Made by a program: the position numbers and the translations under genes
Shown here: piece after piece, positions 10,733 to 56,976 of the stretch
Layout: each line of letters opens with the position of its first letter
Position numbering within the stretch: the stretch's first letter is position 1
NCBI GenBank assembly: GCA_965223665.1
Contig: OZ245011.1
Span: forward strand, 96,001-160,000
Direction of reading: 5' to 3'
Source of the DNA: Nitrospinaceae bacterium
GTDB lineage: Bacteria > Nitrospinota > Nitrospinia > Nitrospinales > Nitrospinaceae
Length of the DNA: 64,000 nucleotides
Notes under the pieces: model-generated
Seen by the model: only the letters and a program-made list of their open reading frames with translations
What the model was told of the DNA's origin: nothing
Database searches by the model: none

Positions 10733-12652
10733 TTAAGACAACCCTTTTGGGATATCAAACCATTCCATTTCATCCACTTTTTTCCCAAAATACTTTGCGC
10801 CCTCTAAAGTGTAATGGTGATGATCAGAATATATTTTTTCGAAATTTTCTGTGACAATACTGCATTTACTTTTTCTGACGGAACATTGATAATCAATCTT
10901 TTTCAGAAATAATATTCCATATTTTGACGCAATTGATTTTAGTTTTTTATTTATAGCGCTCGTTTTCTTTTTCCTTTTATTGAATAAATCTTGCTCAGCT
11001 TGGTCTTTTTTAAATAAAGCGAAGTCGCCATTTATATTGCTAACTATATCATCTAAGAGCGTATTATTTTGAGGTTTAATTGGCCACTCTTCTGATTTAG
11101 ATAAAAGAATCACTTTCTTTTCATTTGCTAAGAGAAATTTAATAAAATTTTCAATATAGCTCAATTCATTTCCATTAAATGAATCACTAATTACAACAAT
11201 TCTAGCTTTTTGGAATTCTTGGCTTTCAATACACTCCTTAGTTCTTTCTATACCTCCTTTTTCTATTTCATCAATATATTCTTGATCATTCTTATCATTT
11301 GAAAAAAAGACCAATCGGAGATCACATAGTTCAAAATTATAAAACTTCACGTATTTGGTGCTGTGTATCAATTGAAAAAAATCGAAACCATGACTATCTC
11401 CCCAAACTAGTACATCTATTAAACCTGGTTTTTTGAATTTATCAAAATAATTCCAACCCCTATCAAAATTACTTTTTCGCAAGCTTAAAAGATAATTGTT
11501 ATCATAAACATATCCTTGGAACCTGTTTTTTGAATGTTTTGAATTCCATCCTATGGATATTAAGGCAACCGATAAAATAAATATCATCTGAAAAAAAACT
11601 TTTCTTTTTACTAATTGATTATTTCTAAAAATCTTTTCAACAAAAAAATAACTTATAAATGAACATAAAAAGGTCAAAATAATTAAATAAAGCTTTTGAT
11701 AATTTAAAATACTCCCTAACTGGATCCTAGCGAAAGCAAATATAGGAAAGTGCCAAAGATAAAGTGAATAAGAAATCTTTCCAACAAAATTTATTATTTT
11801 TGAAGACAATAATTTAGAGGCAATATCTATTTGATTTGAAAACCAGATGATTAAGCAACTGCCCAATACAGGAATTGAGGTCCAAATAGAAGGGTGTCTA
11901 GTTTGTTCATCAAAATATAAAAATGATATTATAAGAGTGGTCAAACCAATAGGAGGCATTGTTTTTTGCCAAATCTCCTTAAGTTTTCTCCCTCTACCCA
12001 GAATTTCAAAATAGCTTAATAATACACCTGTGCCTAATTCCCATAACCTTGTATGAATATAATAAAATGTTTTTGATGGCTGGTTTAGGGAACCCCATTC
12101 CGCTAAAAATAAGCTTAAAATTTCAAGTCCAATTAGAAGCGGTAAAAAGTATTTTGGAGATTTTTTTAAAAAGTAAAAACATGTGATCGGAAGTATAATG
12201 TAAAATTGCTCTTCAACTGAAAGAGACCAGGTGTGTAAAAATGGCCTCAATAATCCATCGGTAGCTCCATATTCAATCCCAGAATAATAAAAAAATATAT
12301 TTGATAAAAAAAATATTGATGAAAAAATTGAGTTAATAAAATTAGAAAAATTGGTGGGTAATAGAACAAAGTAAGCAATTGGAATGCTGGTAAATATGAC
12401 AAGATATAATGCGGGTAAAATTCGTCTGGCTCTTCTTTCATAAAAATTTAAAAAACTAAAACCGTTGCTTATTTTTATTTCATAAATAATAATTCTTCCT
12501 ATCAAATAACCGCTGATTACAAAAAATATATCTACCCCGATATATCCTCCTTCAATCCAAAATTGTTCAAAAAGGACAATTTCAGCGTGATACATTATAA
12601 TGCCCAGAACTGCAATAGCTCTGAGCCCATCAATGTCAGTTCTGTATTTCAC
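10733..12652 (-). CDS. Acyltransferase-3 / SGNH fusion O-acetyltransferase (OafA/OatA-like)
   Basis: YRTDIDGLRAIAV, GVDIFFVISG, RRILP, HTWSLSVEEQFY, SYSLYLWHFP; SGNH VWGDSH and DHHH; GTG start. Confidence 0.92.
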   Translation of the reverse strand: MKYRTDIDGLRAIAVLGIIMYHAEIVLFEQFWIEGGYIGVDIFFVISGYLIGRIIIYEIKISNGFSFLNFYERRARRILPALYLVIFTSIPIAYFVLLPTNFSNFINSIFSSIFFLSNIFFYYSGIEYGATDGLLRPFLHTWSLSVEEQFYIILPITCFYFLKKSPKYFLPLLIGLEILSLFLAEWGSLNQPSKTFYYIHTRLWELGTGVLLSYFEILGRGRKLKEIWQKTMPPIGLTTLIISFLYFDEQTRHPSIWTSIPVLGSCLIIWFSNQIDIASKLLSSKIINFVGKISYSLYLWHFPIFAFARIQLGSILNYQKLYLIILTFLCSFISYFFVEKIFRNNQLVKRKVFFQMIFILSVALISIGWNSKHSKNRFQGYVYDNNYLLSLRKSNFDRGWNYFDKFKKPGLIDVLVWGDSHGFDFFQLIHSTKYVKFYNFELCDLRLVFFSNDKNDQEYIDEIEKGGIERTKECIESQEFQKARIVVISDSFNGNELSYIENFIKFLLANEKKVILLSKSEEWPIKPQNNTLLDDIVSNINGDFALFKKDQAEQDLFNKRKKKTSAINKKLKSIASKYGILFLKKIDYQCSVRKSKCSIVTENFEKIYSDHHHYTLEGAKYFGKKVDEMEWFDIPKGLS

Positions 12653-37110: not shown

Positions 37111-38025
37111 ATGCGGCATTATTGGCCTTTAGGTCCCGTACTTGTTTTTGGAGAAGTATTGTTTGATGCATTTCCTGAAAAAACATGTTTGGGGGGAGCC
37201 CCATTTAATTTTGCGTTTCATCTGGTCAAATTAGGGTTGCCCGTCCACTTTATTAGCTCCATAGGGGATGATTCGCAGGGTGAAGAAATTATTGATTTTG
37301 GAATTCGAAACGGATTTCCGCTTTCTGGGATTCAAAAGGATCCAGACCATCCCACAGGAATGGTGCAAGTAACCTTGGATGGTAAGAAAAGCCCAAGTTT
37401 TGAAATTCTACCAAATAGAGCGTTTGACTATATTAGGTTCAATGAGTTTTTAAATAACCTTCTGAAAGATGAGATTCCCCTTATTTATTTTGGAAGTTTG
37501 GCGCAAAGAAACGAAACTTCAAAAAAAACCTTAGAGTCTATTTTAAAAAGATGTTCCTTCCGATCAAAAGTTTTTGTAGATTTAAATTTAAGAGCACCTT
37601 TTTATAACAAAGAATTGGTGGAAAAAATTTTAGGGTGTTGCGATTTCTTGAAAATAAGCATGGAGGAATTACAGGAGATCAAAAATATTTTTAATCTCAC
37701 TGGATCAATAAGCCAAATAGGAGTCCAGTTGTTGACCCATTTTAAGATTGGCTCCCTGTGTGTTACCCAAGGAAGCAATAGTAACCTTCTTTTTGACACC
37801 GGGAAGAGAGAGCCTTTGATTTGCCCGGTGCAATCCAATGAGGAAATTGTTGATACTGTTGGGGCGGGTGATGCTTTCTCCGCAATGCTCGCATTAGGTT
37901 TTTTGGCGGGATTTCCTCGGAAAACAATTTTAGATCGGGCAACAGAATTTGCTACTAGATTATGTAGTGTTAAGGGGGCGTTGCCTTTAGATGAGTCGTT
38001 TTATAAACCCTATCGATTTGAATAA
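37111..38025 (+). CDS. PfkB-family fructokinase
   Basis: FGEVLFD, GGAPFN, DLNLR, DTVGAGDAF; directly upstream of sps and sus. Confidence 0.88.
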   Translation: MRHYWPLGPVLVFGEVLFDAFPEKTCLGGAPFNFAFHLVKLGLPVHFISSIGDDSQGEEIIDFGIRNGFPLSGIQKDPDHPTGMVQVTLDGKKSPSFEILPNRAFDYIRFNEFLNNLLKDEIPLIYFGSLAQRNETSKKTLESILKRCSFRSKVFVDLNLRAPFYNKELVEKILGCCDFLKISMEELQEIKNIFNLTGSISQIGVQLLTHFKIGSLCVTQGSNSNLLFDTGKREPLICPVQSNEEIVDTVGAGDAFSAMLALGFLAGFPRKTILDRATEFATRLCSVKGALPLDESFYKPYRFE

Positions 38026-40196
38026 TGTCTGAAAACACTAAAGGGATTTATCTTCTGTTATTCAGTATTCACGGGCTTGTTCGTTCGCATGATTTAGAAA
38101 TGGGACGAGATGCTGATACGGGTGGACAGGTAAAGTATGTTTTAGAACTTGCAGAACAATTGTCCCGTCGACCTGAAGTAGAGAGGGTGGATTTGTTTAC
38201 TCGCCAAATAAGAGACCGAAAAGTATCCTCCGATTATTCAGTTCCCATTGAAGAAATTTCACCCAAAGCAAGGATTGTTCGTATTCCCTGTGGAGGGGGA
38301 AAATATATTCGCAAAGAATTATTGTGGAATCATTTGGATGAATACGTCGATAAAACTTTAAAATTTATTAAGAAAGAAGAATTGAATCCACATCTGGTTC
38401 ACGGTCATTATGCAGATGGTGGTTACGTTGCAATGACATTGGCAAATTTTTTGGGAGTACCATTTATTTTTACAGGACATTCTTTGGGGAAAAGTAAAAA
38501 TGAAAAGTTGTTGGAAGATGGTTGGACTTCTGAAGATATAAATAAAAAATATCACATGGAACATAGGATTGAAATTGAAGAAAAAATTATGGGTTGTGCT
38601 GATTTGGTGTTTACCAGTACCCAACAAGAGATTGATAAACAATATGGCCTTTATGGTAACCGTTCTATTCCAGAGTTTATTGTTAATCCCCCTGGATTAG
38701 ATTTAAAGAGGTTTTATCCCTTTTATGATGAAGAGCATTTGGATGAATCTGGTAAACAAGCGAGGATGGCAATTCAAAATGAATTGAACCGTTTTTTTCT
38801 GGCACCTGAAAAACCATTGATTCTGGCATTATCTCGTCCGGATAAACGAAAAAACATTTCATCTTTAATTCAGACATTTGGAGAAAGTAAGGATTTGCAA
38901 GCCATCGCAAATTTGGCTGTGTTTTGTGGGATTAGAAAAAATATTTTAGATATGGAAGAGAATGAGCAATCGGTACTGACTGAAACACTTTTGCAAATGG
39001 ATAGGTATGATTTATATGGAAAAATGGCTATCCCTAAAAAGCATGACTTTACATTAGAAGTTCCTGAATTATATCGAATTGCTGCAATGAGGAGAGGAGT
39101 ATTTGTAAACCCTGCACTTACAGAGCCATTTGGTTTAACTTTACTGGAGTCGGCGGCTTGTGGATTGCCAATTGTTGCTACAAACGATGGTGGACCCGTT
39201 GATATTATTAAAAATTGTAATAATGGTGTTTTAGTGGATGTTTCTGATATTGAGAAAATCGGGGAGGCCGTTAAAGAAATTCTAGTCGATGAAGAAAAAT
39301 GGAAACAATTTTCCATCAATGGAATCAATAATGTGCGATCCTATTATTCTTGGGATGCTCATGTGGATAGATATTTAGAGCGTATTCATTCTATGAAAAG
39401 TTTGAGCCTGGAAAGAAAGTTTAATATTTCAAATGGTGCACCCATTGGAAGAAAAATGATCCAAATCAATCGGATGGTTATAACAGATATTGATAATACA
39501 TTGACCGGGGATGATGAGTCACTGGAGCAATTTTTAGAAACAATCAATTCGCATAAAAATAATGTGGGGTTCGGGGTGGCAACAGGAAGAAGTATTAATT
39601 CTGCTTTAGAATTTTTACAAGAAAATAAAGTTCCAATACCTGATGTTCTTATCACTTCGGTTGGTAGTGAGATTTATTATAGTGGCAAAAATTATTTGGA
39701 TAATGGATGGTCTGTTCACATTCAGCAAAAATGGGAAAAAGAAAAAATCAAAAAACTTCTGGCAACATTACCTTTCTTAAATCCGCAAGAACCAGAAACT
39801 GAGAGACTTTATAAAGTTAGTTATTTTATGGAACCCAAAGAAGGTTATTTAGAGCAAATTCATGATCTACTCACTAAAAATAGATGTAGATATAATTTGA
39901 TTTACTCGCATCAGCAATTTTTAGATGTATTACCTCAAAGGGCTTCTAAGGGAAAAGCCATTAGGTATTTGAGTTATAAATGGGAAATTCCATTAGAAAA
40001 TATTTTGGTTGCAGGTGACTCTGGAAATGATGAAGAGATGCTCCGGGGAGATCCCTGGGGAGTAATTGTCGGCAATTATAGTGAAGAAATGGAAAGGCTT
40101 AAGGGAAAGCGTAGAATTTATTTTTCAAAGAAAAATTTTGCGGCAGGCGTAATGGATGGTATTAGGCATTATCGATTTTTAGGAGGTTCAGATTGA
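38025..40196 (+). CDS. sps: Sucrose-phosphate synthase with C-terminal HAD sucrose-phosphatase domain
   Basis: SIHGLVR...GRDADTGGQVKYV, HGHYADG, TGHSLG, RPDKRKN, NPALTEPFGLTL; HAD motif TDIDNT, GDSGND. Confidence 0.94.
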   Translation: MSENTKGIYLLLFSIHGLVRSHDLEMGRDADTGGQVKYVLELAEQLSRRPEVERVDLFTRQIRDRKVSSDYSVPIEEISPKARIVRIPCGGGKYIRKELLWNHLDEYVDKTLKFIKKEELNPHLVHGHYADGGYVAMTLANFLGVPFIFTGHSLGKSKNEKLLEDGWTSEDINKKYHMEHRIEIEEKIMGCADLVFTSTQQEIDKQYGLYGNRSIPEFIVNPPGLDLKRFYPFYDEEHLDESGKQARMAIQNELNRFFLAPEKPLILALSRPDKRKNISSLIQTFGESKDLQAIANLAVFCGIRKNILDMEENEQSVLTETLLQMDRYDLYGKMAIPKKHDFTLEVPELYRIAAMRRGVFVNPALTEPFGLTLLESAACGLPIVATNDGGPVDIIKNCNNGVLVDVSDIEKIGEAVKEILVDEEKWKQFSINGINNVRSYYSWDAHVDRYLERIHSMKSLSLERKFNISNGAPIGRKMIQINRMVITDIDNTLTGDDESLEQFLETINSHKNNVGFGVATGRSINSALEFLQENKVPIPDVLITSVGSEIYYSGKNYLDNGWSVHIQQKWEKEKIKKLLATLPFLNPQEPETERLYKVSYFMEPKEGYLEQIHDLLTKNRCRYNLIYSHQQFLDVLPQRASKGKAIRYLSYKWEIPLENILVAGDSGNDEEMLRGDPWGVIVGNYSEEMERLKGKRRIYFSKKNFAAGVMDGIRHYRFLGGSD

Positions 40197-42610
40197 AAAT
40201 AATTAATAATTTATCGAATCTTCTTTCTGTTAAAGAGATTCGGTGTTTCCGTGAATTTATTTATGAACTAAACCACTCTTCCTCAAAACATCTTTTAAGA
40301 AATGAAATTTTATTGAAGTTTAATGATTTCATATCTCAAAAAAATGGAAATGCACAGGTTGATCAATTAAAAAGTTTTTTATCTAAAACACAAGAAATGC
40401 TTTTAATGGATGAATTTGTTGTTTTGCTTTATCGAACTCGCGTGGCTAATTACGAATTTTATCGTATTCATGAGGGAGAAGATCAGATAGATTCACTGAC
40501 TTCGGAAGAATTTTTGGATTACCGGGAGACTCTTGCAGGTCAGTCCTATCTTCCTGCCGAGAAGAAATTACGTCTTGATTTTAAACCTTTTTATAGCTTT
40601 GGACCTGTTATCAGAGACCATCGCAAGATAGGTTCCGGACAAAGGTTTTTAAATAGTTTTATGGCTGGAAAACTACAAAATGAACCGGAAAAGTGGCACC
40701 ATTATTTATGCGAGTTTTTGAAAATTCACTCCATTAATGATGAACAAATTTTAATTGATGGAGAAGTAATTCAGGGACCTACCCACCTATTTGAAGCAGT
40801 TCAAAAAGCCATATCGCAATTAGAAGAATTAAATGCTGAATTGCCTACGCAGGAAATCAAAGGATTATTAAATGCTTTAGGAATCCGTGACGGTTTTGGA
40901 AATACTGTTGGCAAGACCTTAAGTAATCTCCAATTACTTGCGAATCTTTTTGAAGAACCCAACTCAGATTATTTAGAAGATTTCATCTCTACAATACCTA
41001 TGATTTCTCGAGTAGCTATCATTTCTCCTCATGGATGGTTTGGGCAGGATAATGTTTTAGGACGTCCAGATACGGGAGGGCAGGTTGTTTATATTCTTGA
41101 TCAAGTAAAGGCATTAGAAAAATTTTTAATGGAGTCGATGCAATCCGCTGGCTTGAAAGTTGAACCGAAAATAATAATATTAACAAGATTGATTCCTGAA
41201 AATGAGGGAACCACAAGTAACCAAAGGTTGGAGAAGGTTCATGGAACTAAAAATTGCTGGATACTGCGAGTGCCTTTTAGAGATGAGAACCAAAATATTA
41301 TTCCGCAATGGATTTCCCGATTTCATATTTGGCCCTTTTTGGAGCAATTTGCTTTAGATGCAAAAACAGAATTGCAAACCGAGTTAGGAGGTAAGCCGGA
41401 TTTAATTGTTGGGAATTATTCGGATGGAAATTTGGTGGCTTCCTTATTGTCTTCTTGGTTGGGGGTCATCCAATGTAATATTGCTCATGCCTTAGAAAAA
41501 TCCAAATATCTTTTTTCAGCGCTATATTGGAAGGAAAATGAGGAGGATTACAATTTCTCTCTTCAATTTACTTCTGATCTTCTTGCTATGAATCGTGCAG
41601 ATATTATTATTTCCAGTACAGCTCAGGAGATTGCAGGTACGGATACGGTAATGGGTCAATATGAATCGTATTGTCTATTCTCGATGCCGGATTTATATAA
41701 AGTTGTAAATGGAGTAAATTTATATCATCCAAAATTTAACGTGGTTTCTCCCGGTGTAGATGATGCTCTTTATTTTCCCTATGACCAGCATGAAAGGAGA
41801 ATGCAAAATCAAACTAAAGAACTTACCGAAAGATTATTTTATCAAAAGGGAAACGATATTTTTGGAGAATTAGAAGATCCGGAAAAAGTAACTATTTTTA
41901 CCATGGCTCGGTTAGATAAAATTAAAAACCTAACAGGATTGGTTGAGAGTTTTGGTGAAAATAAAAAACTTAGAGAAAAAGCAAATTTGATTTTGGTGAC
42001 ACGTGCAATTCGGGAAGAAGGAATTGTAGATGAAGAAGAGTTACATGAACTTAAAAAGATGTATCGGCTCATTGATGAATTCAATTTGTGGGGTAGTCTT
42101 CGGTGGATAGAAAACTCTTCACGTCAAAATGGTGCTGAAATGTATCGAATTGTTGGTGATCGGAAAGGGATATTTGTTCAGCCTGCATTATTCGAAGCAT
42201 TTGGATTGACGGTTTTAGAGTCCATGGCCACTGGTTTGCCCACTTTTGCCACACAATTTGGAGGTCCTTTAGAGATTATTCAGGATGGACAAAATGGTTT
42301 TTTGATCAATCCCACTCAAGCTTCCCTTCTTACCCAACCCATTTTAAAATTTTTGGAAAGATGCGAAGAGGATCCTACTTATTGGGAAAAAATTTCTAAA
42401 GCTGGCATTTCACGAGTTCAGGAAGCTTATACTTGGAAACTGTATTCTGAAAAACTAATCAAGTTTGCCAAGTTATATGGGTTTTGGAATTATTCAGAAT
42501 TTGGAGATGAGAAAAATGAAATAGATCAATATTGTTCATTGCTATTTCATTTAATCTATAAAGTTAGGGCAGAAAAACTATTAGGAATGAAAGAGGAAAT
42601 TAAAATTTAA
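40193..42610 (+). CDS. sus: Sucrose synthase
   Basis: ISPHGWFGQDNVLGRPDTGGQVVYILDQV, GNYSDGNLVA, AHALEK, MARLDKIKN, QPALFEAFGLTV; TTG start overlaps the sps stop. Confidence 0.95.
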   Translation: MKIINNLSNLLSVKEIRCFREFIYELNHSSSKHLLRNEILLKFNDFISQKNGNAQVDQLKSFLSKTQEMLLMDEFVVLLYRTRVANYEFYRIHEGEDQIDSLTSEEFLDYRETLAGQSYLPAEKKLRLDFKPFYSFGPVIRDHRKIGSGQRFLNSFMAGKLQNEPEKWHHYLCEFLKIHSINDEQILIDGEVIQGPTHLFEAVQKAISQLEELNAELPTQEIKGLLNALGIRDGFGNTVGKTLSNLQLLANLFEEPNSDYLEDFISTIPMISRVAIISPHGWFGQDNVLGRPDTGGQVVYILDQVKALEKFLMESMQSAGLKVEPKIIILTRLIPENEGTTSNQRLEKVHGTKNCWILRVPFRDENQNIIPQWISRFHIWPFLEQFALDAKTELQTELGGKPDLIVGNYSDGNLVASLLSSWLGVIQCNIAHALEKSKYLFSALYWKENEEDYNFSLQFTSDLLAMNRADIIISSTAQEIAGTDTVMGQYESYCLFSMPDLYKVVNGVNLYHPKFNVVSPGVDDALYFPYDQHERRMQNQTKELTERLFYQKGNDIFGELEDPEKVTIFTMARLDKIKNLTGLVESFGENKKLREKANLILVTRAIREEGIVDEEELHELKKMYRLIDEFNLWGSLRWIENSSRQNGAEMYRIVGDRKGIFVQPALFEAFGLTVLESMATGLPTFATQFGGPLEIIQDGQNGFLINPTQASLLTQPILKFLERCEEDPTYWEKISKAGISRVQEAYTWKLYSEKLIKFAKLYGFWNYSEFGDEKNEIDQYCSLLFHLIYKVRAEKLLGMKEEIKI

Positions 42611-44564: not shown

Positions 44565-45500
44565 ATGGACATTTACGCAAAATGGTTTACCAAAGCTGGA
44601 CTTATTTATTTAATTATTGGTGTTTTTCTAGGTATAGGAATAGGAGTTTCTCCTGAATGGGGTCAAAGGTTGCGTTTTGTTCACATACATTTCAATTTAT
44701 TGGGATTTATGACCATGATGATTGCCGGTGTGGCTTATCACGTTTTGCCACGATTTAATGCAAACCCTGTTCCCTGGCCGGATGGGGTTAAATATCATTT
44801 TTATTTACAGAACATTGGATTGTTGGGAATGTGTGGAGTGCATTTGGCTGGAGGAATTTGGAGTGGAGGAGGCCTTCAAGTATTATTTGTGGTCTTTGCT
44901 CTTATAGCTGGTGGAGGAGTATCCATTATGTTTTATAATTTGTATATGGTTTTACAACCGGGAAAAAGTTCTGAAACCAATGCAATCAATCCCCAAATGA
45001 AAGTCGGAGACATTTTAGATAAGTTTCCACATACTCTCCAATTATTTATTGCTAATGGATTTAATTCATTAAATAACCCGGTAGCTCGAAAAACTTTTGC
45101 TCAAATGGTGAGTCTCGAAAATGCTTGTAAAAAACATGGTGTGAATTTAAGCGAGTTTATGCAGAAATTAAATAGTGTTGTGCAATCCTCCTCGGGAACT
45201 AGGCCGAGAGATTCTGAAAAGAAGACTGAATCTTCTTCGATAAAAAGTGGAGAGGTTCCGGTAGGTAAAACAATTAATAGAGGGGAATTTTGTACTTTGG
45301 ATGTAATGGTTGGAAGTTTAATCAAGGTTTATCCTCAAACGAAGGGCATATTTGAAAAACACTATGGAGAGGATTGCTTTTCCTGTCCAGGTCAGGTCTT
45401 TGAAACTATTGAGCAAACGGCAAATATGCATAATCTGAGCCCTGATCAAATATTAAAGGAAATCAATGAAGAGATTTCTATTTCCTTAAAGGATTCATAA
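44565..45500 (+). CDS. Membrane protein (heme-copper-oxidase-subunit-I-like 4-TM fragment) fused to two DUF1858/ScdA_N-like domains
   Basis: VHIHFNLLGF...GVAYHVLPRF TM block; MKVGDILDKFP...SLENACKKHG; VGSLIKVYP...CFSCPG...ETIEQ.A.MH. Confidence 0.72.
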   Translation: MDIYAKWFTKAGLIYLIIGVFLGIGIGVSPEWGQRLRFVHIHFNLLGFMTMMIAGVAYHVLPRFNANPVPWPDGVKYHFYLQNIGLLGMCGVHLAGGIWSGGGLQVLFVVFALIAGGGVSIMFYNLYMVLQPGKSSETNAINPQMKVGDILDKFPHTLQLFIANGFNSLNNPVARKTFAQMVSLENACKKHGVNLSEFMQKLNSVVQSSSGTRPRDSEKKTESSSIKSGEVPVGKTINRGEFCTLDVMVGSLIKVYPQTKGIFEKHYGEDCFSCPGQVFETIEQTANMHNLSPDQILKEINEEISISLKDS

Positions 45501-49826: not shown

Positions 49827-50756
49827 ATGAAGGAGAATGAAATTTTAACGCCCGAAAATATAGAGTTTAAATCTGGTTATGTTAGCCTGATTGGTAAACC
49901 CAATGTTGGAAAGTCTACTTTATTAAATCATTTGGTTTCAGAAAAAATTGCTGCAATATCCCGTCGTCCTCAAACCACTCGAAATAAAATTACAGGTGTG
50001 TGTCATTTATCGAGGGGGCAAATAATTATACTCGATACCCCAGGAATACATAAGGCCTCCACCAAACTTAATCAAGTAATGGTGCAAACTTCCTTAAATA
50101 CCTTTGGTGATGTAGATATTATTTTATTTATGATAGATGCTCGGCAGAAATTTGGTTCTGAAGATGAGTATGTTTTGGAATCTTTAAAAAAGACTTCATT
50201 ACCCAAATTTTTAGTAATAAATAAAATTGATTTGGTTAGTAAACCTGATCTTCTGAAACTTATTGATGATATGTCGGAAAAGGAAAAATTTTTAGAAATA
50301 ATTCCAATTTCTGCCTTGCAAAAAGATGGGTTGGATCTATTGAAGAACGTTCTTTTAAAATATTTGCCAGAAGGTCCTCCCTATTTTCCAAAAGATATGA
50401 TAACAAATTGTCCTGAACAATTCTTAGCGGAAGAAATTATCCGCGAAAAAATAATTCGACAAACTCATTTTGAGATTCCTTATGCTGTAGCGGTGGTGGT
50501 CGAGAGCATGGTGAATGGAAAAAATGATGTGATTATCATCGATGCAAATATTTTTGTAGAAAGAGCCAGCCAAAAGAAAATTATTATTGGTGAAAAGGGA
50601 AGCCTGCTTAAAAAGATTGGTAGTTCCGCACGCTTAGAAATTGAGAAACGTTTTGGTAATAAAGTGTATCTAAATTTGTTCGTAAAGGTAAAAGAGAAGT
50701 GGCGGGAAAATTTAAGAGATATTCGTGAATTTGGTTATAGTCATGGTCACAATTAA
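49827..50756 (+). CDS. era: GTPase Era
   Basis: GKPNVGKST, PQTTR, DTPG, NKID, KH domain with IIIGEKG. Confidence 0.97.
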   Translation: MKENEILTPENIEFKSGYVSLIGKPNVGKSTLLNHLVSEKIAAISRRPQTTRNKITGVCHLSRGQIIILDTPGIHKASTKLNQVMVQTSLNTFGDVDIILFMIDARQKFGSEDEYVLESLKKTSLPKFLVINKIDLVSKPDLLKLIDDMSEKEKFLEIIPISALQKDGLDLLKNVLLKYLPEGPPYFPKDMITNCPEQFLAEEIIREKIIRQTHFEIPYAVAVVVESMVNGKNDVIIIDANIFVERASQKKIIIGEKGSLLKKIGSSARLEIEKRFGNKVYLNLFVKVKEKWRENLRDIREFGYSHGHN

Positions 50757-51598: not shown

Positions 51599-52069
51599 AT
51601 GCAGGGCGATGAAAAGATCATTGAAGGATTAAATGAAGTGTTGACGGCAGAATTGACAGCTATCAACATATATTATATCCATTATAAAATGCAGAAGAAT
51701 TGGGGCTTTGACAAGTTAGCTGAGCATGCACGGGAAGAATCAATGGGGGAAATGAAACATGCGGATGCAATCATTGAACGAATTTTGTATTTGGATGGAA
51801 CTCCAAACATGGCTCGCTATGACACCGTTTTGGTTGGCGACTCCTGTGAAGAGCATCTACGCAATCAATATGAAATTGAAAAAAAACATGTTGATCGTCT
51901 CAAAAAAATTATCAGTCAGTGTATTGAATGTCAGGATTTTGGTACGAAGGAGATCCTCGATAGCATTTTAGAAGATACAGAAGAAAGTTGTGATTGGATT
52001 GAAACCCAATTTCAACGAATTCAAGATGTTGGTATTCAAAACTACCTTGCCGAGCATATGCATTCATGA
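51599..52069 (+). CDS. bfr: Bacterioferritin (atypical ferroxidase centre)
   Basis: MQGD..II..LN, ELTAIN.Y, ESMGEMKHAD, ERILYLDGTPN, G.QNYL; AGGAGG RBS. Confidence 0.93.
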   Translation: MQGDEKIIEGLNEVLTAELTAINIYYIHYKMQKNWGFDKLAEHAREESMGEMKHADAIIERILYLDGTPNMARYDTVLVGDSCEEHLRNQYEIEKKHVDRLKKIISQCIECQDFGTKEILDSILEDTEESCDWIETQFQRIQDVGIQNYLAEHMHS

Positions 52070-52108: not shown

Positions 52109-52546
52109 ACCCTAATATGAAATTAATAGGGAATAAAATGGTTTTCTCAATTGACTCCTCCAACTGTGCTTGATTTTTTTTTGATTCGTCAAATTTGGAT
52201 TATTCTCTCCTGTTTTTAATTTTTGAAACCACTAGTTAAATTTAAAAAAATTTTATTTAATTATTTAAGGAAACTTATCATTCCGTGCCTGTTAAGGATC
52301 AAAGTGAAACAAAGCATACTTTTTGTGAAATTGGATAGGTAGAGAAAAACAGAATAATAAATTGAATCAGAGTGAATAATTCTCTTAAAACTCCTCATTA
52401 CAAAACCAGCTCTCCTTATTTAGTTTGTTACATACAAAAAAATTGAACAAATAATTGTTATTTTTTGCGCAGGATTGTAAGGAATTAATTTATAAGTCCT
52501 TATAAATTAAATATTTAGAGTTTTTATAGAATTTTTCTTTTTAATA

Positions 52547-52603
52547 TTGACAATGATTCTCAATTTCTATATAAATATTAAACATTAATGATAATGATTT
52601 TCA
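52547..52603 (+). promoter_or_regulatory. Sigma70 promoter overlapped by two Fur boxes
   Basis: TTGACA (52547-52552)-17 nt-TATAAA (52570-52575); 7-1-7 boxes TGACAAT-G-ATTCTCA (52548-52562) and TGATAAT-G-ATTTTCA (52589-52603) versus consensus TGATAAT-N-ATTATCA. Confidence 0.85.
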
Positions 52604-52626
52604 AAATCTTTTTAGGCGGCGATATT

Positions 52627-52887
52627 ATGGCTAATTCAACAGAATTCACTATAAAAGTTTGTCAAGGGCCGGGGTGTAAGGCATGGGGTGCAGAAGGGCT
52701 TTTAAAGGAGCTTGTCAACCGGACAGGTATTAAATCCTCAAAGAATGGAAAAAAAGTTTGTGGTGCTCCCTGTATGAATCGCTGTGGCGGTGGAACCTCT
52801 GTACTGGTTGGTGATGATCAATCATTTATGAAAATTCGTGAATCTTCTCTTTCGTCTATGCTCTGTACCTTGCCGGCTTCAGCCTGA
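52627..52887 (+). CDS. Thioredoxin-like [2Fe-2S] ferredoxin
   Basis: IKVCQGPGCKAWGA ... PCMNRCGGG (C-X4-C...C-X3-C); ATG 52627 after AGGCGG. Confidence 0.75.
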   Translation: MANSTEFTIKVCQGPGCKAWGAEGLLKELVNRTGIKSSKNGKKVCGAPCMNRCGGGTSVLVGDDQSFMKIRESSLSSMLCTLPASA

Positions 52888-52975
52888 GGCAATTTTATTC
52901 GGTGGGAATTACCTCCTCCAACTGAAGTCGGCAGGTACATGTTTTATGACTTTATTTTCCCCATGGGGAGGTTTT

Positions 52976-53292
52976 ATGAGCATAGTGATTGTTGGTGGGT
53001 TGGATTGCTGGAAGCGCATATATGAAATACAGGGGAAAAGATTAGGTATTTAGTTTAAGGTTTTGGAGGGAAAGTTCCTGCTTTAGTGAAAAGAATTTCC
53101 AGGGTGGAGGGTATTGCTGTATTTACAAGTATGGTTTCTCACCCTTTTTTGGATGAGGTCAATCAATCTGCCCGTTGAAATAAAATTATGATCATCAGAA
53201 TAAATACAAGCAGTGCTTCTGGGCTTAAGCGCTGTTTAGTGGAATTTTTTAAATACCGACAAAGCCAAAATCGTTTTTTGTTTTTGGCTTAA
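52976..53292 (+). pseudogene. Disrupted DUF2325-like gene
   Basis: GGAGG RBS, MSIVIVGGLD...KRLGI*; TAG at 53051, frameshift near 53070, then KVPALVKRISRVEGIAVFTSMVSH...AR*(53176)NKIMIIRINTSSASGLKRCL. Confidence 0.75.
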
Positions 53293-53335
53293 TTTTTTGT
53301 TGGATCGAACCATTAGTTGAGGAGGTAATTAAGTA

Positions 53336-54658
53336 ATGAAACAGTTAAGTAGGATGGCTGGAGTTTTGGCTTTTGCTTTCTGGGTTATGATGACCCTGGG
53401 AGGTTTGCCTAATGCTCTTGCCGCAACAGGGGATGATGCGGGAGATGATGACATTATCATTATCGAAGAGGAAGGCGCGGATGATATTGGAGAGTTGTCC
53501 AACCAATTCGATCTATTAGCCGATGAAATCACAGAAATTCGTGATACGTTTGGAAGTTTTAGAAAGAATGTGAACGTCACTGGTTATGGGGAAGTGCATA
53601 TTAACGCTCCAACAGATGGCGGAAACACGGTATTTGATGCGCATCGGTTCGTAATCGGTATTAATGCTCGATTTACCGATTGGATTTTTCTTAATGTCGA
53701 AGTGGATTATGAGCATGGTGCGCAGCAACTTGAATTTGAAATGGGATATTTGGATTTTTTAATTAATCCTCTTTTTAACCTGCGGGTGGGTGTCGTTTTG
53801 ATTCCTGTTGGCTTTCTCAACGAATACCATGAACCGGTTTTCTTCTGGACTGTAGAACGCCCTCTATTACAAAGCCAAATTATTCCCACGTCTTGGCAAG
53901 GAACAGGTGGAGGTGCTTTTGGAACAGTAAATGCTTTAGGTGGAATCAACTACCGTCTATATGTCGTAAATTCACTTCAATCAGTTAGGCCTAACGGGTT
54001 TGGTTCAGGTTCCGGTGTTGGTAATGGGGGCAATTCTGGGCGTTTCCGTTCCTCAAGTGGAATTCGAAGTGGTAGGTTGCAGCCTAATAATGCAATTGGT
54101 GAAGATATTGCGGTTACTGGTCGTTTGGAATTTACCGGTCTGTTTCCTGGTTTACAAGTTGGATTGTCATTTTGGACTGGCGATACCACTCATGAAATCA
54201 TTCAAGCTAATGGACGCACCACGCTTCTAGAGGCGGATGTGAAGTTTCGAATCCAATGGTTTGAAATGAATGCAACTATTGCCAATATTCATGTGAACGA
54301 TGCCGAAGTTATAAATGCTTTTATGACTACTCAAGTCGCAGCGGGAGGAAACCAAAATGTCGCCTCGAATATGTTGGGATATAATATTCAAGTGGGTGTC
54401 CATGTTCCTCAATTGTTAAATATGGGGACAACCCAGGATTTTGTTGTTCACTTTATGTATGAGTTTGTCGATACACAGGATTCGGCTGCACCGGGTTTTG
54501 CCAATCTGGCTCAATTTGAACGTGATGTGTATACTGCCGGTTTTGCTTGGTTTGCCACTCCCAATGTGGCTTTGAAAGCTGACTTTACGCATGTAACAAC
54601 TGGCGTCGGTACTTCTACAAGTACCGCTAACTTTGGTATGGCCTATATGTTCTTTTAA
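53336..54658 (+). CDS. Outer-membrane beta-barrel porin (OprO/P-like fold), putatively iron-related
   Basis: GAGGAGG RBS, signal peptide, acidic coiled-coil N-terminus, GYGEVH, FDAHRFV, EVDYEHG, LNEYHEP, IIPTSW, alternating beta-strands, C-terminal Phe. Confidence 0.8.
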   Translation: MKQLSRMAGVLAFAFWVMMTLGGLPNALAATGDDAGDDDIIIIEEEGADDIGELSNQFDLLADEITEIRDTFGSFRKNVNVTGYGEVHINAPTDGGNTVFDAHRFVIGINARFTDWIFLNVEVDYEHGAQQLEFEMGYLDFLINPLFNLRVGVVLIPVGFLNEYHEPVFFWTVERPLLQSQIIPTSWQGTGGGAFGTVNALGGINYRLYVVNSLQSVRPNGFGSGSGVGNGGNSGRFRSSSGIRSGRLQPNNAIGEDIAVTGRLEFTGLFPGLQVGLSFWTGDTTHEIIQANGRTTLLEADVKFRIQWFEMNATIANIHVNDAEVINAFMTTQVAAGGNQNVASNMLGYNIQVGVHVPQLLNMGTTQDFVVHFMYEFVDTQDSAAPGFANLAQFERDVYTAGFAWFATPNVALKADFTHVTTGVGTSTSTANFGMAYMFF

Positions 54659-54728
54659 TGTTAGGCTTGGTTTTAAAACAAATCATACATTAATAATTTT
54701 AATAAAATTTTGATATATAGAGGAAATT

Positions 54729-55304
54729 ATGTGGACAAAAAATAATAAACCTTCTTTCCAAAATGTTTGGACATTTGGCTTGTTGTTGACATTCTTTTTG
54801 GCAAGTTGGTTCGCTAACCCGGTTTGGGCAGCGGACGCCAGTTCCAAAGAAAAAGCCATCAGAGCGGCATTTTCTGGGGCCGATAAAATCGTTAAAAAGA
54901 AAGTCTGGATTAATGATATTCAGAAACGGAAAATAAGTAATATCTGTAAGCAAGTTATAGAGGACAAAAGAGTAAACTATTTTGTTGGCTATAAAGGGGG
55001 TAAACCTCTAGGATTTGCAACTATTGAAACTGTTAAAAACAGATCTTTCCCAATAACCTATATGACAGTTCTTAATGAAGATGGTTCCGTTCAGGATGTT
55101 AAAGTCCTGGACTATCAAGGACCTCGTGGTAACTTTAGTGTTCTTAATGATTCCTGGTTGGACCAATACGATGGTAAAAATGCGGATTCTGATTTTAGTA
55201 ATCCAACCAAAGTCGTGGGTGCCAGAATTGCTATTCGGACTATCAATAACGGAGTTTATAAAGCCGTCGCGGCTTATAAGGTATTGATGTTAGATAAGAA
55301 ATGA
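54729..55304 (+). CDS. FMN-bind domain periplasmic protein (flavinylation motif degenerate)
   Basis: Signal peptide, PITYMTV...G.V.DV.VL.Y, WLDQYDGK, VVGARIAIRTI; paralog of the next gene. Confidence 0.78.
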   Translation: MWTKNNKPSFQNVWTFGLLLTFFLASWFANPVWAADASSKEKAIRAAFSGADKIVKKKVWINDIQKRKISNICKQVIEDKRVNYFVGYKGGKPLGFATIETVKNRSFPITYMTVLNEDGSVQDVKVLDYQGPRGNFSVLNDSWLDQYDGKNADSDFSNPTKVVGARIAIRTINNGVYKAVAAYKVLMLDKK

Positions 55305-55328
55305 TTTAAGGAAAGTTTAGTTTAAAAA

Positions 55329-55967
55329 TTGTTAAAGTTTTTGAAATTTAATGAAGGAAATACTTCTGCCCAATCCTGGAATGTTTTCAGGATTGGGTTG
55401 TTGTGTTTGGGATTTGTTATTCTTTTTCTTCCCTTGGATTACAGTCTTGCTCAGGATAAAGACAAGAAAGAAGAAGAGGAGGAATACGTTGAGCGGGTTT
55501 TCTTTACCAAAAAGCAGGCATTGAAGCATGCTTTTCCTGGAGTAAAAAAATTTAAAAAGAAAAAAGTATGGTTAACTCCTTCTCAACGAGAGGCAATCAG
55601 CAAAATTACTGGTGAAAAATATAATGAAAGACGCATCACTTTTTTTGAAGGCATTAAAGGTGATCAAACCCAAGGTTTTGTGACCATTGGAAACGAAATT
55701 GGACGATCTTATCCAATCACGTTTATGGTGGTTATTACACCTGAAGGAACCGTTAAGGATGTGGAGATCATGGTTTATCGGGAACCTCATGGCTGGGAGG
55801 TGCAATTTGAATACTTCATGAAACAGTTCTTTGGACGTGATGCAAGCAACCCTTTTGATAATATAAATAATATTACAGGTGCTACTCTTTCAGTACGTTC
55901 TATGACTAGGGGAGTAAAAAAGGCAGTGGCAGCTTATAAAGTATTGTTCTTAGATAAAGTAGAATAG
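55329..55967 (+). CDS. FMN-bind domain periplasmic protein with flavinylation motif
   Basis: PITFMVV...G.VKDVEIMVYREPHG.EV, FMKQFFG, NITGATLS. Confidence 0.85.
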   Translation: MLKFLKFNEGNTSAQSWNVFRIGLLCLGFVILFLPLDYSLAQDKDKKEEEEEYVERVFFTKKQALKHAFPGVKKFKKKKVWLTPSQREAISKITGEKYNERRITFFEGIKGDQTQGFVTIGNEIGRSYPITFMVVITPEGTVKDVEIMVYREPHGWEVQFEYFMKQFFGRDASNPFDNINNITGATLSVRSMTRGVKKAVAAYKVLFLDKVE

Positions 55968-55986
55968 TTCTAATTAAATCAGGTAT

Positions 55987-56976
55987 TTAATTTTCCAAAA
56001 TAGAAATAATTTTATGGGTAATTCTTTCCAATCCCTTCCCATCAATCAACCTTTTCCCCGTCTCACTCATTTGTTTTCTTTGGTTTGAGGAAAGACTTAA
56101 TTTTTTGATTAAATCGTTTTCATTCCAGTTGTTAGCTGAGCCTAAAAAATAAGTAGCACCTTTTTGTTCAATAGACTGTGCTATTTTGCTTTGTTGTTCT
56201 ACTTGCGATATGACAAGTGTAGGGCTACCCACACAAAGTGCCTCATGCAAAGTTACTCCCCCCGAGCAAATGACCAAATCATGATTAAAAAGAATTTCAG
56301 CGAGAGACGCTATAGGACCTTCCACTTTTACTTTAGAAAAATTTTGGTTCAGAGATTTTAGGGATTCTTGGTTTTTAAAACCCGGTCCTTTTAAAATTGT
56401 TAGATCTAAATTTGGATAATGAGTAAGGATACTTCTTGCAATGGGTTCGGATAAATTAAAGGGATCAGTTCCTCCCATAGTTATCAATACAGAGTTGATG
56501 TTTTTCGAAATAATTTTTTCTTTTTGATGAAAATTTTTAAATGCCGGATCAATTAGCGTGTAGGATAAGCCAAACAAGCCTAAATAATTTTCAACGTCAC
56601 TAAGGGGCTTAACTGGAGTTATATTGCAGTCAACTAAAATGTCGACATAGGATCTACCATCCCCCAAATCCTCAAAACTTACAATCTTTGCTTTGGATTT
56701 TAAATTTTGTATAAAATCTGATTTAGTATCATTAATATCTAAAATGATGAGATTGGAGTTTATTAAGTCCTTCTGTGAGGAAGTGTATAATTCTTCAACA
56801 ATTTGAAACTTTAATTGGTTTGTCTTTAATAGATTCTTGGCAGGCATGTAGTCTTTGATGAATAAAGTAACGTTTATTCCTGCTGACTTTAAGGAATTAG
56901 CTAAATGTATTTGACGGTGAAGATGTCCCAATCCTTCCTGGTGAGACCCTTTGCATAAAATGGAAATTTGAGTCAT
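55987..56976 (-). CDS. PseG/SpsG-like UDP-sugar hydrolase (GT28-like fold)
   Basis: GLGHLHR, LITMGGTDP, ICSGGVTLHEA, IDGKGLERI. Confidence 0.82.
   Translation of the reverse strand: MTQISILCKGSHQEGLGHLHRQIHLANSLKSAGINVTLFIKDYMPAKNLLKTNQLKFQIVEELYTSSQKDLINSNLIILDINDTKSDFIQNLKSKAKIVSFEDLGDGRSYVDILVDCNITPVKPLSDVENYLGLFGLSYTLIDPAFKNFHQKEKIISKNINSVLITMGGTDPFNLSEPIARSILTHYPNLDLTILKGPGFKNQESLKSLNQNFSKVKVEGPIASLAEILFNHDLVICSGGVTLHEALCVGSPTLVISQVEQQSKIAQSIEQKGATYFLGSANNWNENDLIKKLSLSSNQRKQMSETGKRLIDGKGLERITHKIISILEN

Follow-up and report, generated by a model that had tools for sequence, protein, structure and literature searches.

The stretch of DNA analysed here, called the window below, comprises 64,000 nucleotides of a Nitrospinaceae bacterium (GenBank assembly GCA_965223665.1, contig OZ245011.1, positions 96,001 to 160,000 of the forward strand, that is, G000:C1:96001-160000 in our numbering; the genome is 4.35 Mb long with a completeness of 98.6%, and contig C1 accounts for 4.24 Mb). 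Within it, at 52547-55967, lies a gene cluster that appears to be the Nitrospinota form of a widespread iron-starvation module, with genes on one strand for a ferredoxin, a decayed DUF2325 protein, an outer-membrane porin and two exported proteins related to the flavin mononucleotide (FMN)-binding FMN_bind family (FMN1 and FMN2). Reductive iron uptake is the most likely function of this cluster, with a probability that we put at about 0.6. Iron regulation and a role in iron acquisition are supported by comparative genomics; that Fur controls the cluster, that the system is flavinylated, that iron is its substrate and how the electrons travel are points that we infer. A first-pass annotation of the window, made from the sequence alone, had read the cluster as a Fur-repressed operon for flavin-dependent reductive iron uptake. 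The core of that proposal is supported by the enrichment of Fur boxes, the presence of fur within related clusters and the neighbourhood of ApbE, FeoB, FTR1 and P19 genes, and the reduction of Fe(III) itself is still conjectural.

The cluster is preceded by a sigma-70-type promoter on the forward strand (52547-52575; TTGACA at 52547-52552, a 17-nt spacer and TATAAA at 52570-52575), which is read directly from the sequence and which a consensus promoter scanner omits solely because its rule demands T at the last −10 position. Fur boxes were scored as matches to the 19-mer E. coli-type Fur consensus, which is AT-rich. Each of the two boxes of the first-pass annotation, one on the −35 and one just downstream, resolves by this measure into a pair of overlapping 19-mers shifted by 6 bases, in the manner of a hexamer array: the first pair (52543-52567; 14/19 at 52543 and 15/19 at 52549) covers the −35, and the second (52584-52608; 15/19 at 52584 and 16/19 at 52590) lies past the −10, ahead of the likely start codon at 52627. 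The first pair is identical in the close relative (locus L001), or sister genome, defined by a porin that is 96% identical to that of the window. Four of the nine positions in the window that match the consensus at 14/19 or better fall inside 52543-52608, as do three of the 57 positions at 15/19 or better on contig C1 (where only 6 reach 16/19), and the site is one of 8 strong Fur-box clusters in the genome. Control of the cluster by Fur is suggested by the sequence. A 15/19 box at 11491 lies within an acyltransferase open reading frame (ORF) and was taken as a chance match.

Comparison within the phylum, for which 120 Nitrospinota genomes (57 of them of high quality) were surveyed, shows that the porin and the FMN_bind protein belong together. 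The porin is present in 60 of the 120 genomes and in 34 of the 57 high-quality ones, and is carried by the cultured relative Nitrospina gracilis; all of its homologues with a named source are labelled Nitrospinota, Nitrospinae or Nitrospina. In 31 of 32 Nitrospinota loci, the porin is followed by an FMN_bind homologue, and the sole miss is a contig that ends 234 nt past the porin; two tandem FMN copies are found only in the family of the window. In 20 larger loci of relatives, the gene order is era, map, bfr, a divergent fur, ferredoxin, DUF2325, often a receiver-domain protein, porin and FMN_bind. Throughout Nitrospinota, the cluster is always beside bacterioferritin, which in the window is encoded immediately upstream (51599-52069, forward strand; TIGR00754, E 1.9e-51, above the cut-off) at a position kept in relatives. 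When these 20 loci, the close relative and the window are compared, a fur gene (PF01475, E 9.5e-35) is found in divergent orientation inside the cluster in 11 of the 22 regions. The window and sister clusters are devoid of fur, with no remnant in the spacer between bfr and the ferredoxin gene (best tblastn E 0.11), and the Fur gene nearest to the window cluster is at C1:529122-529538. Across the 20 related loci, 80 Fur-box-like sites fall in the cluster spans (81.8 kb in all) and 22 in the flanks (257 kb), which makes them about 11-fold denser in the clusters. Loci of the largest Nitrospinota family (L038, L042, L043, L045-L048 and L044, L050) have an extra gene between DUF2325 and the porin, for a single-domain response regulator (PF00072) or an EAL-domain protein; it lies downstream of Fur-box matches and hints at a signalling input that the genus of the window lacks.

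The same pair is found far beyond Nitrospinota. An FMN_bind alignment search of genomes yielded 73 loci, 29 of which were examined (L132, L158 and L166-L192); the 27 loci L166-L192 form the most distant set, and 22 of them are labelled as coming from outside Nitrospinota, with labels that include Thermodesulfovibrionia, Desulfuromonadales, Binatia, Planctomycetia and Acidobacteriota. Domains were annotated by Pfam searches of 142 neighbouring ORFs from 23 loci and by tblastn. In 24 of the 27 loci, the gene immediately upstream of FMN_bind encodes a porin homologue with 25-32% identity to the window porin (tblastn E 1e-27 to 1e-60); the other three are cut by contig ends. The pair recurs in at least 10 differently labelled lineages outside Nitrospinota. 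The 22 loci from outside the phylum hold ApbE (8 loci, once fused to FMN_bind), Fur (6), FeoB (5), FTR1 (3), P19 (1) and a DtxR-type repressor (1), so that this survey of gene neighbourhoods agrees with the iron-related context proposed in the first-pass annotation; one locus, L190, combines FTR1, a polyferredoxin, P19, DUF2325, the porin and FMN_bind. Among 1.84 billion proteins, the porin profile retrieves 2833 representatives at E≤1e-3 and 536 at E≤1e-30. Of 12 over-long matches to this profile, 10 start with an ApbE domain and one with FTR1 (555-880 amino acids; P0149, P0157, P0172, P0197, P0220, P0224, P0227, P0244, P0246, P0146 and P0165); whether true fusions or merged gene calls, these proteins show at least the adjacency of the genes.

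In 12 of the distant loci (L169, L170, L173-L175, L177, L178, L184-L187 and L190), FMN_bind is followed by a His-rich membrane protein of 150-190 amino acids with four helices and the conserved motif LLEvTHFHLF...HL.LF. Seven of seven such proteins searched against Pfam have no match at E≤0.01, DUF4405 included, with weaker, chance-level matches in two, and neither tblastn nor a profile of the 12 members detects a homologue in the genome of the window. Compared with this wider cassette of Fur, porin, FMN_bind, four-helix protein and ApbE, the window cluster retains the adjacent porin and FMN_bind genes behind Fur boxes, and its operon includes neither the four-helix protein nor ApbE; the job of the four-helix protein is presumably done here by a PepSY_TM protein described below.

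The porin (53336-54658, forward strand, 440 amino acids) has a signal peptide, an acidic N-terminal segment and a predicted helix at residues 50-73. In its AlphaFold2 model (pLDDT 75, predicted template-modelling score 0.71), 16 strands are formed, and a loop with short helices (residues 156-187) follows strand 5; the top Foldseek matches are OmpU, OmpC, OmpF, Omp32, OmpM1 and OprP (E ~1e-11 to 1e-10, TM-score 0.57-0.68 on the target), so the model points to the classical fold of trimeric-type, 16-strand general porins. At the sequence level, no Pfam family is matched, no match to PF07396 (phosphate-selective porin O/P) appears at E≤0.1 although some relatives carry a precomputed PF07396 label, and the best match of the porin profile among Protein Data Bank sequences has an E value of only 0.052. 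The His/Glu motifs pointed out in the first-pass annotation prove to be invariant in 31 homologues (46-71% identity), in which the full set of invariant positions comprises G85-E86-x-H88, H103-R104, E122-x-D124-x-E126-H127, E133-x-E135, N162-E163-x-H165-E166-P167 and W171-x-x-E174-R175-P176. The invariant Glu, Asp and His residues sit at alternating positions of strands 1-4 and on the loop that joins strands 5 and 6, where general porins have their constriction loop. If they line the pore, as this alternation suggests, the lining would suit cations or metal ions; OprP, by comparison, has an arginine ladder (title of 2o4v) where the window porin has acidic and His residues. The N-terminal segment is as acidic as had been described, with 11 Asp/Glu and zero Lys/Arg among 27 residues; this stretch is confined to closer relatives, and most other homologues align from residue 48.

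FMN2 (55329-55967, forward strand, 212 amino acids) is an exported RnfG/NqrC-like protein with a poly-Glu N-terminus and a TGAT site, and matches the FMN_bind family PF04205 at 37 bits (E 5.3e-9, cut-off 22). Its model (pLDDT 82.8) matches 18 solved chains at E≤0.001, every listed one being RnfG or NqrC, and a profile of 23 FMN proteins from the clusters gives a full-length match to RnfG of Acetobacterium woodii (9eri_G, E 1.9e-11). FMN1 (54729-55304, forward strand, 191 amino acids) has no match in Pfam and is assigned to the family solely through its 40% identity to FMN2. The two exported paralogues are thus not the FMN_bind twins of the first-pass annotation: only FMN2 keeps the flavinylation site. 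TGAT, which conforms to the ApbE flavinylation motif [S/T]GA[S/T] as given in the available text of PMC8238504, occurs in 22 of 24 FMN_bind proteins of the clusters, the two exceptions, both VGAR, being the orthologous FMN1 proteins of the window and the sister genome. First-copy paralogues in two other genera of the same family retain TGAT. The flavin is carried by a residue of this motif, and FMN1 has neither Ser nor Thr at either of the positions concerned. Given the strong purifying selection on FMN1 (ratio of nonsynonymous to synonymous substitution rates, dN/dS, 0.048; FMN2, 0.074), it appears to be a working protein that would be unable to take covalent FMN at the canonical site.

The genome encodes a single ApbE (G000:C1:1228397-1229227, E 2.4e-87), located 1.07 Mb from the cluster, with an N-terminus that reads like a lipoprotein signal. 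PF04205 matches nothing in the genome other than FMN2, and a genome-wide search gave no match to RnfD/NqrB or DUF2271; FMN2 is therefore the obvious candidate for the ApbE substrate. Across the phylum, ApbE is found in 57 of the 60 porin-positive genomes, the three misses being 71, 77 and 90% complete, and 32 genomes, including single-contig assemblies rated 96% complete, contain neither ApbE nor the porin. A genome with no RNF or NQR that would otherwise need ApbE could also use the flavoprotein as an iron-sparing carrier that at low iron takes the place of a periplasmic cytochrome c, in respiration or in the oxidation of nitrite, much as flavodoxin replaces ferredoxin, with the porin as a co-regulated general channel. 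The apparent Fur control would fit, and Meheust et al. (2021, PMC8238504, in the text available) consider that flavinylated carriers might be of advantage where iron is scarce. Such a carrier fails, however, to explain why the porin and FMN_bind genes stay adjacent in all 24 assessable distant loci across many lineages or why they recur beside FeoB, FTR1 and P19, and we consider this explanation improbable.

The first-pass annotation noted that the operon and the window contain no gene for a TonB-dependent receptor, FeoB, FTR1, an ABC permease or ApbE and left the inner-membrane step and the electron donor without a candidate. The absences hold for the window, where none of these is found among the 49 other ORFs of at least 90 amino acids; a PF02421 match in a 309-amino-acid ORF at 49827-50756 reads as the GTPase Era, not FeoB. 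The genome at large is another matter: in addition to ApbE, it has nine matches to the barrel family of TonB-dependent receptors and a cytochrome c-fused FTR1 permease (cFTR1). FeoB was not found with the two families used, PF02421 matching only in frames of 202-473 amino acids, none of them beside a Gate-domain match, compared with 619-762 amino acids for the FeoB proteins of the other loci. cFTR1 (732 amino acids) joins a cytochrome c domain (CKICH; Cytochrom_C, 40.1 bits) to an FTR1 permease with two REGFE motifs (91.7 bits), and its stop codon is overlapped by the gene for the only PepSY_TM protein of the genome (C1:655282-656850, 522 amino acids), in which two helices surround a BNR/sortilin-type beta-propeller and are accompanied by a His-rich cytoplasmic tail. 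This operon (C1:655282-659045; L068:1282-5045, minus strand) lies about 0.5 Mb from the porin cluster and is itself preceded, 17 nt upstream, by a pair of Fur boxes (15/19 and 14/19), thus supplying the missing candidates. Both cFTR1 (residues 636-710) and the PepSY_TM-propeller protein end in a cytoplasmic C-terminal tail; the two tails are weakly homologous, His/Cys-rich helical segments (21-27% identity, 12 loci) that may represent a shared cytoplasmic docking or metal-handling module.

Several genomic associations connect this operon with the porin cluster. The cFTR1 gene directly precedes PepSY_TM in 12 of 12 loci. In another family, a single contig (G004) carries the genes for the PepSY_TM-propeller protein, FMN_bind and the porin on one strand; in family f9, porin and FMN_bind are followed by a short PepSY_TM with the same His pattern and without the propeller, and one contig of that family (L181) holds FMN_bind, PepSY_TM, DUF2325 and cFTR1. 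A PepSY-like gene (PF03929/PF16357), absent from the window, is thus located inside the flavinylation cluster in G004 and family f9, and also in L158, L166 and L167. Of the 120 genomes, 51 have the porin together with the PepSY_TM-propeller protein, 51 have neither, 9 have only the one and 9 only the other; these are kin genomes, and the table is descriptive. According to the parts of PMC8238504 and PMC11334425 available, PepSY-like proteins carry two haems, and in FoxB and VciB they serve to reduce ferric siderophores or iron. On these grounds, the PepSY_TM protein is likely to be the electron donor and cFTR1 the inner-membrane step.

The following scheme would account for these observations. 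Iron-loaded Fur would bind the two box pairs that flank the promoter at 52547-52575, and the five downstream genes would be transcribed when iron is low. Inorganic or weakly bound iron would cross the outer membrane through the porin. FMN2, flavinylated by ApbE at the TGAT threonine, would reduce Fe(III) in the periplasm with electrons that reach it across the inner membrane via the two-helix PepSY_TM protein, which probably binds haem. The iron would be carried inward by cFTR1, with its cytochrome c re-oxidising Fe(II) at the permease. FMN1, conserved yet apparently not flavinylated at the canonical site, would have an accessory role, and the ferredoxin, acting like Bfd, would release the iron of bacterioferritin.

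A bolder version, which we regard as rather unlikely, is that the porin and the flavoprotein form a physical unit, a flavin-based counterpart of porin-cytochrome conduits, operating in a closed redox loop. The acidic tails of FMN2 and the porin would then keep iron at the periplasmic opening of a pore selective for metal, where Fe(III) would be reduced, passed to cFTR1 and re-oxidised, the electron returning via PepSY_TM. Conduits such as MtrAB pair an outer-membrane barrel with a periplasmic redox protein; the pairing of a barrel gene with the gene for such a protein is the same here, although the 16-strand barrel of the window is too narrow for a folded protein and the cofactor would be flavin, not haem.

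Several observations weigh against reductive uptake as outlined. In this genome, ApbE, PepSY_TM and cFTR1 are all encoded away from the cluster. The general view of FTR1-type permeases is that the iron they take has first been oxidised, so that reduction followed by re-oxidation must be assumed; in yeast, the Fre/Fet3/Ftr1 system does combine reductive uptake with re-oxidation at the FTR1 permease, and re-oxidation also figures in a cyanobacterial scheme with cFTR1 (10.1101/2021.11.08.467730). The conserved acidic and His residues of the porin are placed in the pore lumen by strand alternation, not by a measurement on the model. The strongest box directly ahead of the window porin scores only 13/19, and its regulation therefore probably depends on read-through across the DUF2325 pseudogene. 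Moreover, the genome encodes three Fur-family paralogues, and the regulator could be PerR- or Zur-like; a PepSY_TM protein of Bordetella, for its part, is reported to support the function of a copper-dependent oxidase (PMC13038864, in the part available), which makes other metals possible.

The last two points would also fit a cluster that serves another substrate or stress (copper, manganese or peroxide) and whose boxes belong to a PerR-, Mur- or Zur-type paralogue of Fur, as would the DUF2325 protein of Campylobacter jejuni, reported in the available text of PMC9426514 to be PerR-regulated and strongly induced by oxidative stress. The boxes, however, fit the classical iron-Fur hexamer array, the neighbour in Nitrospinota is always bacterioferritin, and the neighbours in other phyla include FeoB, FTR1, P19 and a DtxR-type iron repressor; of all the explanations considered, we find this one the least probable, if only by a little.

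Reductive iron uptake being preferred, the question remains how many units the cluster comprises. The single operon of the first-pass annotation is plausible in the genus of the window, where the porin probably relies on the ferredoxin promoter, read through the pseudogene. Between 51500 and 56200, a scan found 3 terminator-like hairpins (3.5 expected) and 8 promoter-like sites (14 expected), counts that speak neither for nor against one operon. Elsewhere the arrangement differs: in 13 of 19 related loci, a separate Fur-box match precedes the porin by no more than about 330 nt. For this reason, ferredoxin and DUF2325 probably form a functional unit apart, linked to the bacterioferritin next to them. 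Carried further, this argument makes of the cluster two unrelated units brought under one promoter by gene decay, the ferredoxin (once with DUF2325) releasing iron from bacterioferritin and the porin/FMN envelope unit having lost its own promoter in this genus. To this possibility, which refines reductive uptake by the envelope genes rather than contradicting it, we give slightly less than even odds. The distribution of the ferredoxin, described next, speaks for it too, whereas DUF2325 recurs beside the porin outside Nitrospinota (L166 and L190) and may belong to the envelope unit instead.

The ferredoxin (52627-52887, forward strand, 86 amino acids) is a putative cytoplasmic, thioredoxin-like [2Fe-2S] protein, annotated at first simply as a [2Fe-2S] ferredoxin: its match to PF01257 (E 3.6e-4, 20.9 bits) is under the 24.8-bit cut-off and that to the NuoE family has an E value of 6.8e-4, and the four cysteines of the Cx4C...Cx3C pattern are kept in 9 of 9 orthologues, with a dN/dS of 0.044. 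In Nitrospinota loci, it always neighbours bfr or fur, and no homologue is found in the 29 distant loci searched; because of these two observations, it is probably a Bfd-like partner that frees bacterioferritin iron rather than a component of the envelope system. Bfd releases the iron stored in bacterioferritin, and with such a role it makes sense that an iron-sulfur protein would be made in starvation.

The decay of the DUF2325 gene (52976-53292, forward strand), already recognised in the first-pass annotation, can be followed in detail against the intact 105-amino-acid gene of the 96% relative (PF10087, 79.8 bits): AAG has become TAG (53051-53053), a one-base deletion in a T run follows just after, and TTA has become TGA (53176-53178). 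A polishing artefact is excluded by Logan contigs from two runs of one sample, which cover 52761-53400 and 52903-53306 with zero differences; this material comes from the same sample as the best-matching DNA runs and is hence not independent. For positions 52400-56000, four matching sequencing runs are listed, all from one sample and none of them an RNA run. Compared with the relative, the ratio of nonsynonymous to synonymous differences (pN/pS) is 0.27, against 0.05-0.12 for neighbouring genes; the copy is truly dead and under relaxed constraint. An intact paralogue of 94 amino acids (C1:1581743-1582027; L069:2743-3027, minus strand; PF10087, 82 bits), preceded by Fur boxes that score 15/19 and 18/19, may back up the dead copy, and this redundancy may explain why the decay was tolerated. 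In the same sample, contigs with many differences also occur (runs X3 and X4, compared over window positions 52500-53400), and a loose contig end matches the sister genome over the start of DUF2325; two close relatives seem to coexist there, one with an intact and one with a dead DUF2325.

Among known systems, the closest are the flavinylation clusters described by Meheust et al. (2021, PMC8238504), of which, in the text available, the PepSY-like, MsrQ-like and P19 types are linked to iron. The PepSY-like systems (structure of FoxB, 7ABW, according to the accessible part of PMC11334425) likewise combine an ApbE-dependent extracytosolic flavoprotein with a PepSY_TM protein, and the available text of PMC8238504 proposes for them a role in iron reduction and assimilation, with Fur repression in some species. 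They differ from the module described here in several respects: their carrier is DUF2271, not an RnfG-like FMN_bind protein; a dedicated porin is a constant partner in the module of the window, and the word "porin" occurs 0 times in PMC8238504; and the PepSY_TM protein of the window genome is a two-helix form with a beta-propeller insert, encoded elsewhere beside cFTR1. In the P19/FTR1 clusters of the same study, an FMN-binding gene stands beside P19 and FTR1, as in L190, but these clusters, as far as the available text goes, are mostly from Gram-positive bacteria and have no porin. RnfG and NqrC of RNF and NQR resemble the window proteins in sequence and fold over the full length, in the flavinylation motif and in the N-terminal hydrophobic helix; the window proteins differ in standing alone, without RnfD/NqrB, in the poly-Glu N-terminus of FMN2 and in the lost site of FMN1.

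On the side of the porin, the psp gene of Geobacter metallireducens and Desulfuromonas, for which Rodionov et al. (2004, PMC545781, in the part available) describe a hypothetical porin weakly similar to PF07396 with tandem Fur boxes and propose a role as an iron carrier, is similar by description only, and Desulfuromonadales loci L172 and L175 hold a homologue of the window porin; in the accessible text, psp is listed alone, without a flavoprotein partner. A cyanobacterial scheme (10.1101/2021.11.08.467730, as far as available) also comprises passage through porins, reduction outside the cytoplasm, in that case by ARTO, and a cytochrome c-fused FTR1. In that scheme, a terminal oxidase reduces the iron, whereas the reductase proposed here is a flavinylated periplasmic protein fed by PepSY_TM, and the cyanobacterial iron porins are described as SLH/OprB-domain proteins, of another family than the window porin. 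No paper that links a porin and an FMN-binding protein to the uptake of iron came up in a literature search, the scope of which did not extend to Supplementary file 1 of PMC8238504, where such clusters may be listed. The window cluster is therefore best described as a lineage-specific variant of an undescribed module that is itself a variant of known flavinylation-based iron systems.

Some further features of the window and the genome deserve mention. A Fur-box pair of 17/19 and 16/19 at G000:C1:1337108 (L070) lies between the genes for two exported proteins of 589 and 186 amino acids, neither with a Pfam family, which are possible further members of the iron regulon. At 38025-42610, the window encodes a sucrose-phosphate synthase/phosphatase fusion and, after it, a sucrose synthase, which probably serve the metabolism of compatible solutes. 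A 311-amino-acid ORF at 44565-45500 combines two DUF1858 domains with an N-terminal membrane part that weakly resembles PF00115, haem-copper oxidase subunit I (E 4e-6, below the cut-off).

The ocean's main nitrite oxidisers are Nitrospinota, which rely on an iron-rich key enzyme. The way in which they acquire iron affects the marine nitrogen cycle. The size of the porin family (536 clusters) and its pairing with an ApbE-dependent flavoprotein in multiple phyla, beside FeoB or FTR1, suggest that a route of iron uptake which would need neither siderophores nor TonB is common yet unstudied. Should the porin and the flavoprotein prove to be a physical unit, major marine nitrite oxidisers would import iron without siderophores or the energy of TonB. 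The parts are small and expressible, and a cultured carrier exists, which makes the proposal testable; natural variants, namely PepSY_TM in place of the four-helix protein, FMN1 without its acceptor site, and a dead DUF2325 alongside an intact paralogue with Fur boxes, can help to assign roles to the parts.

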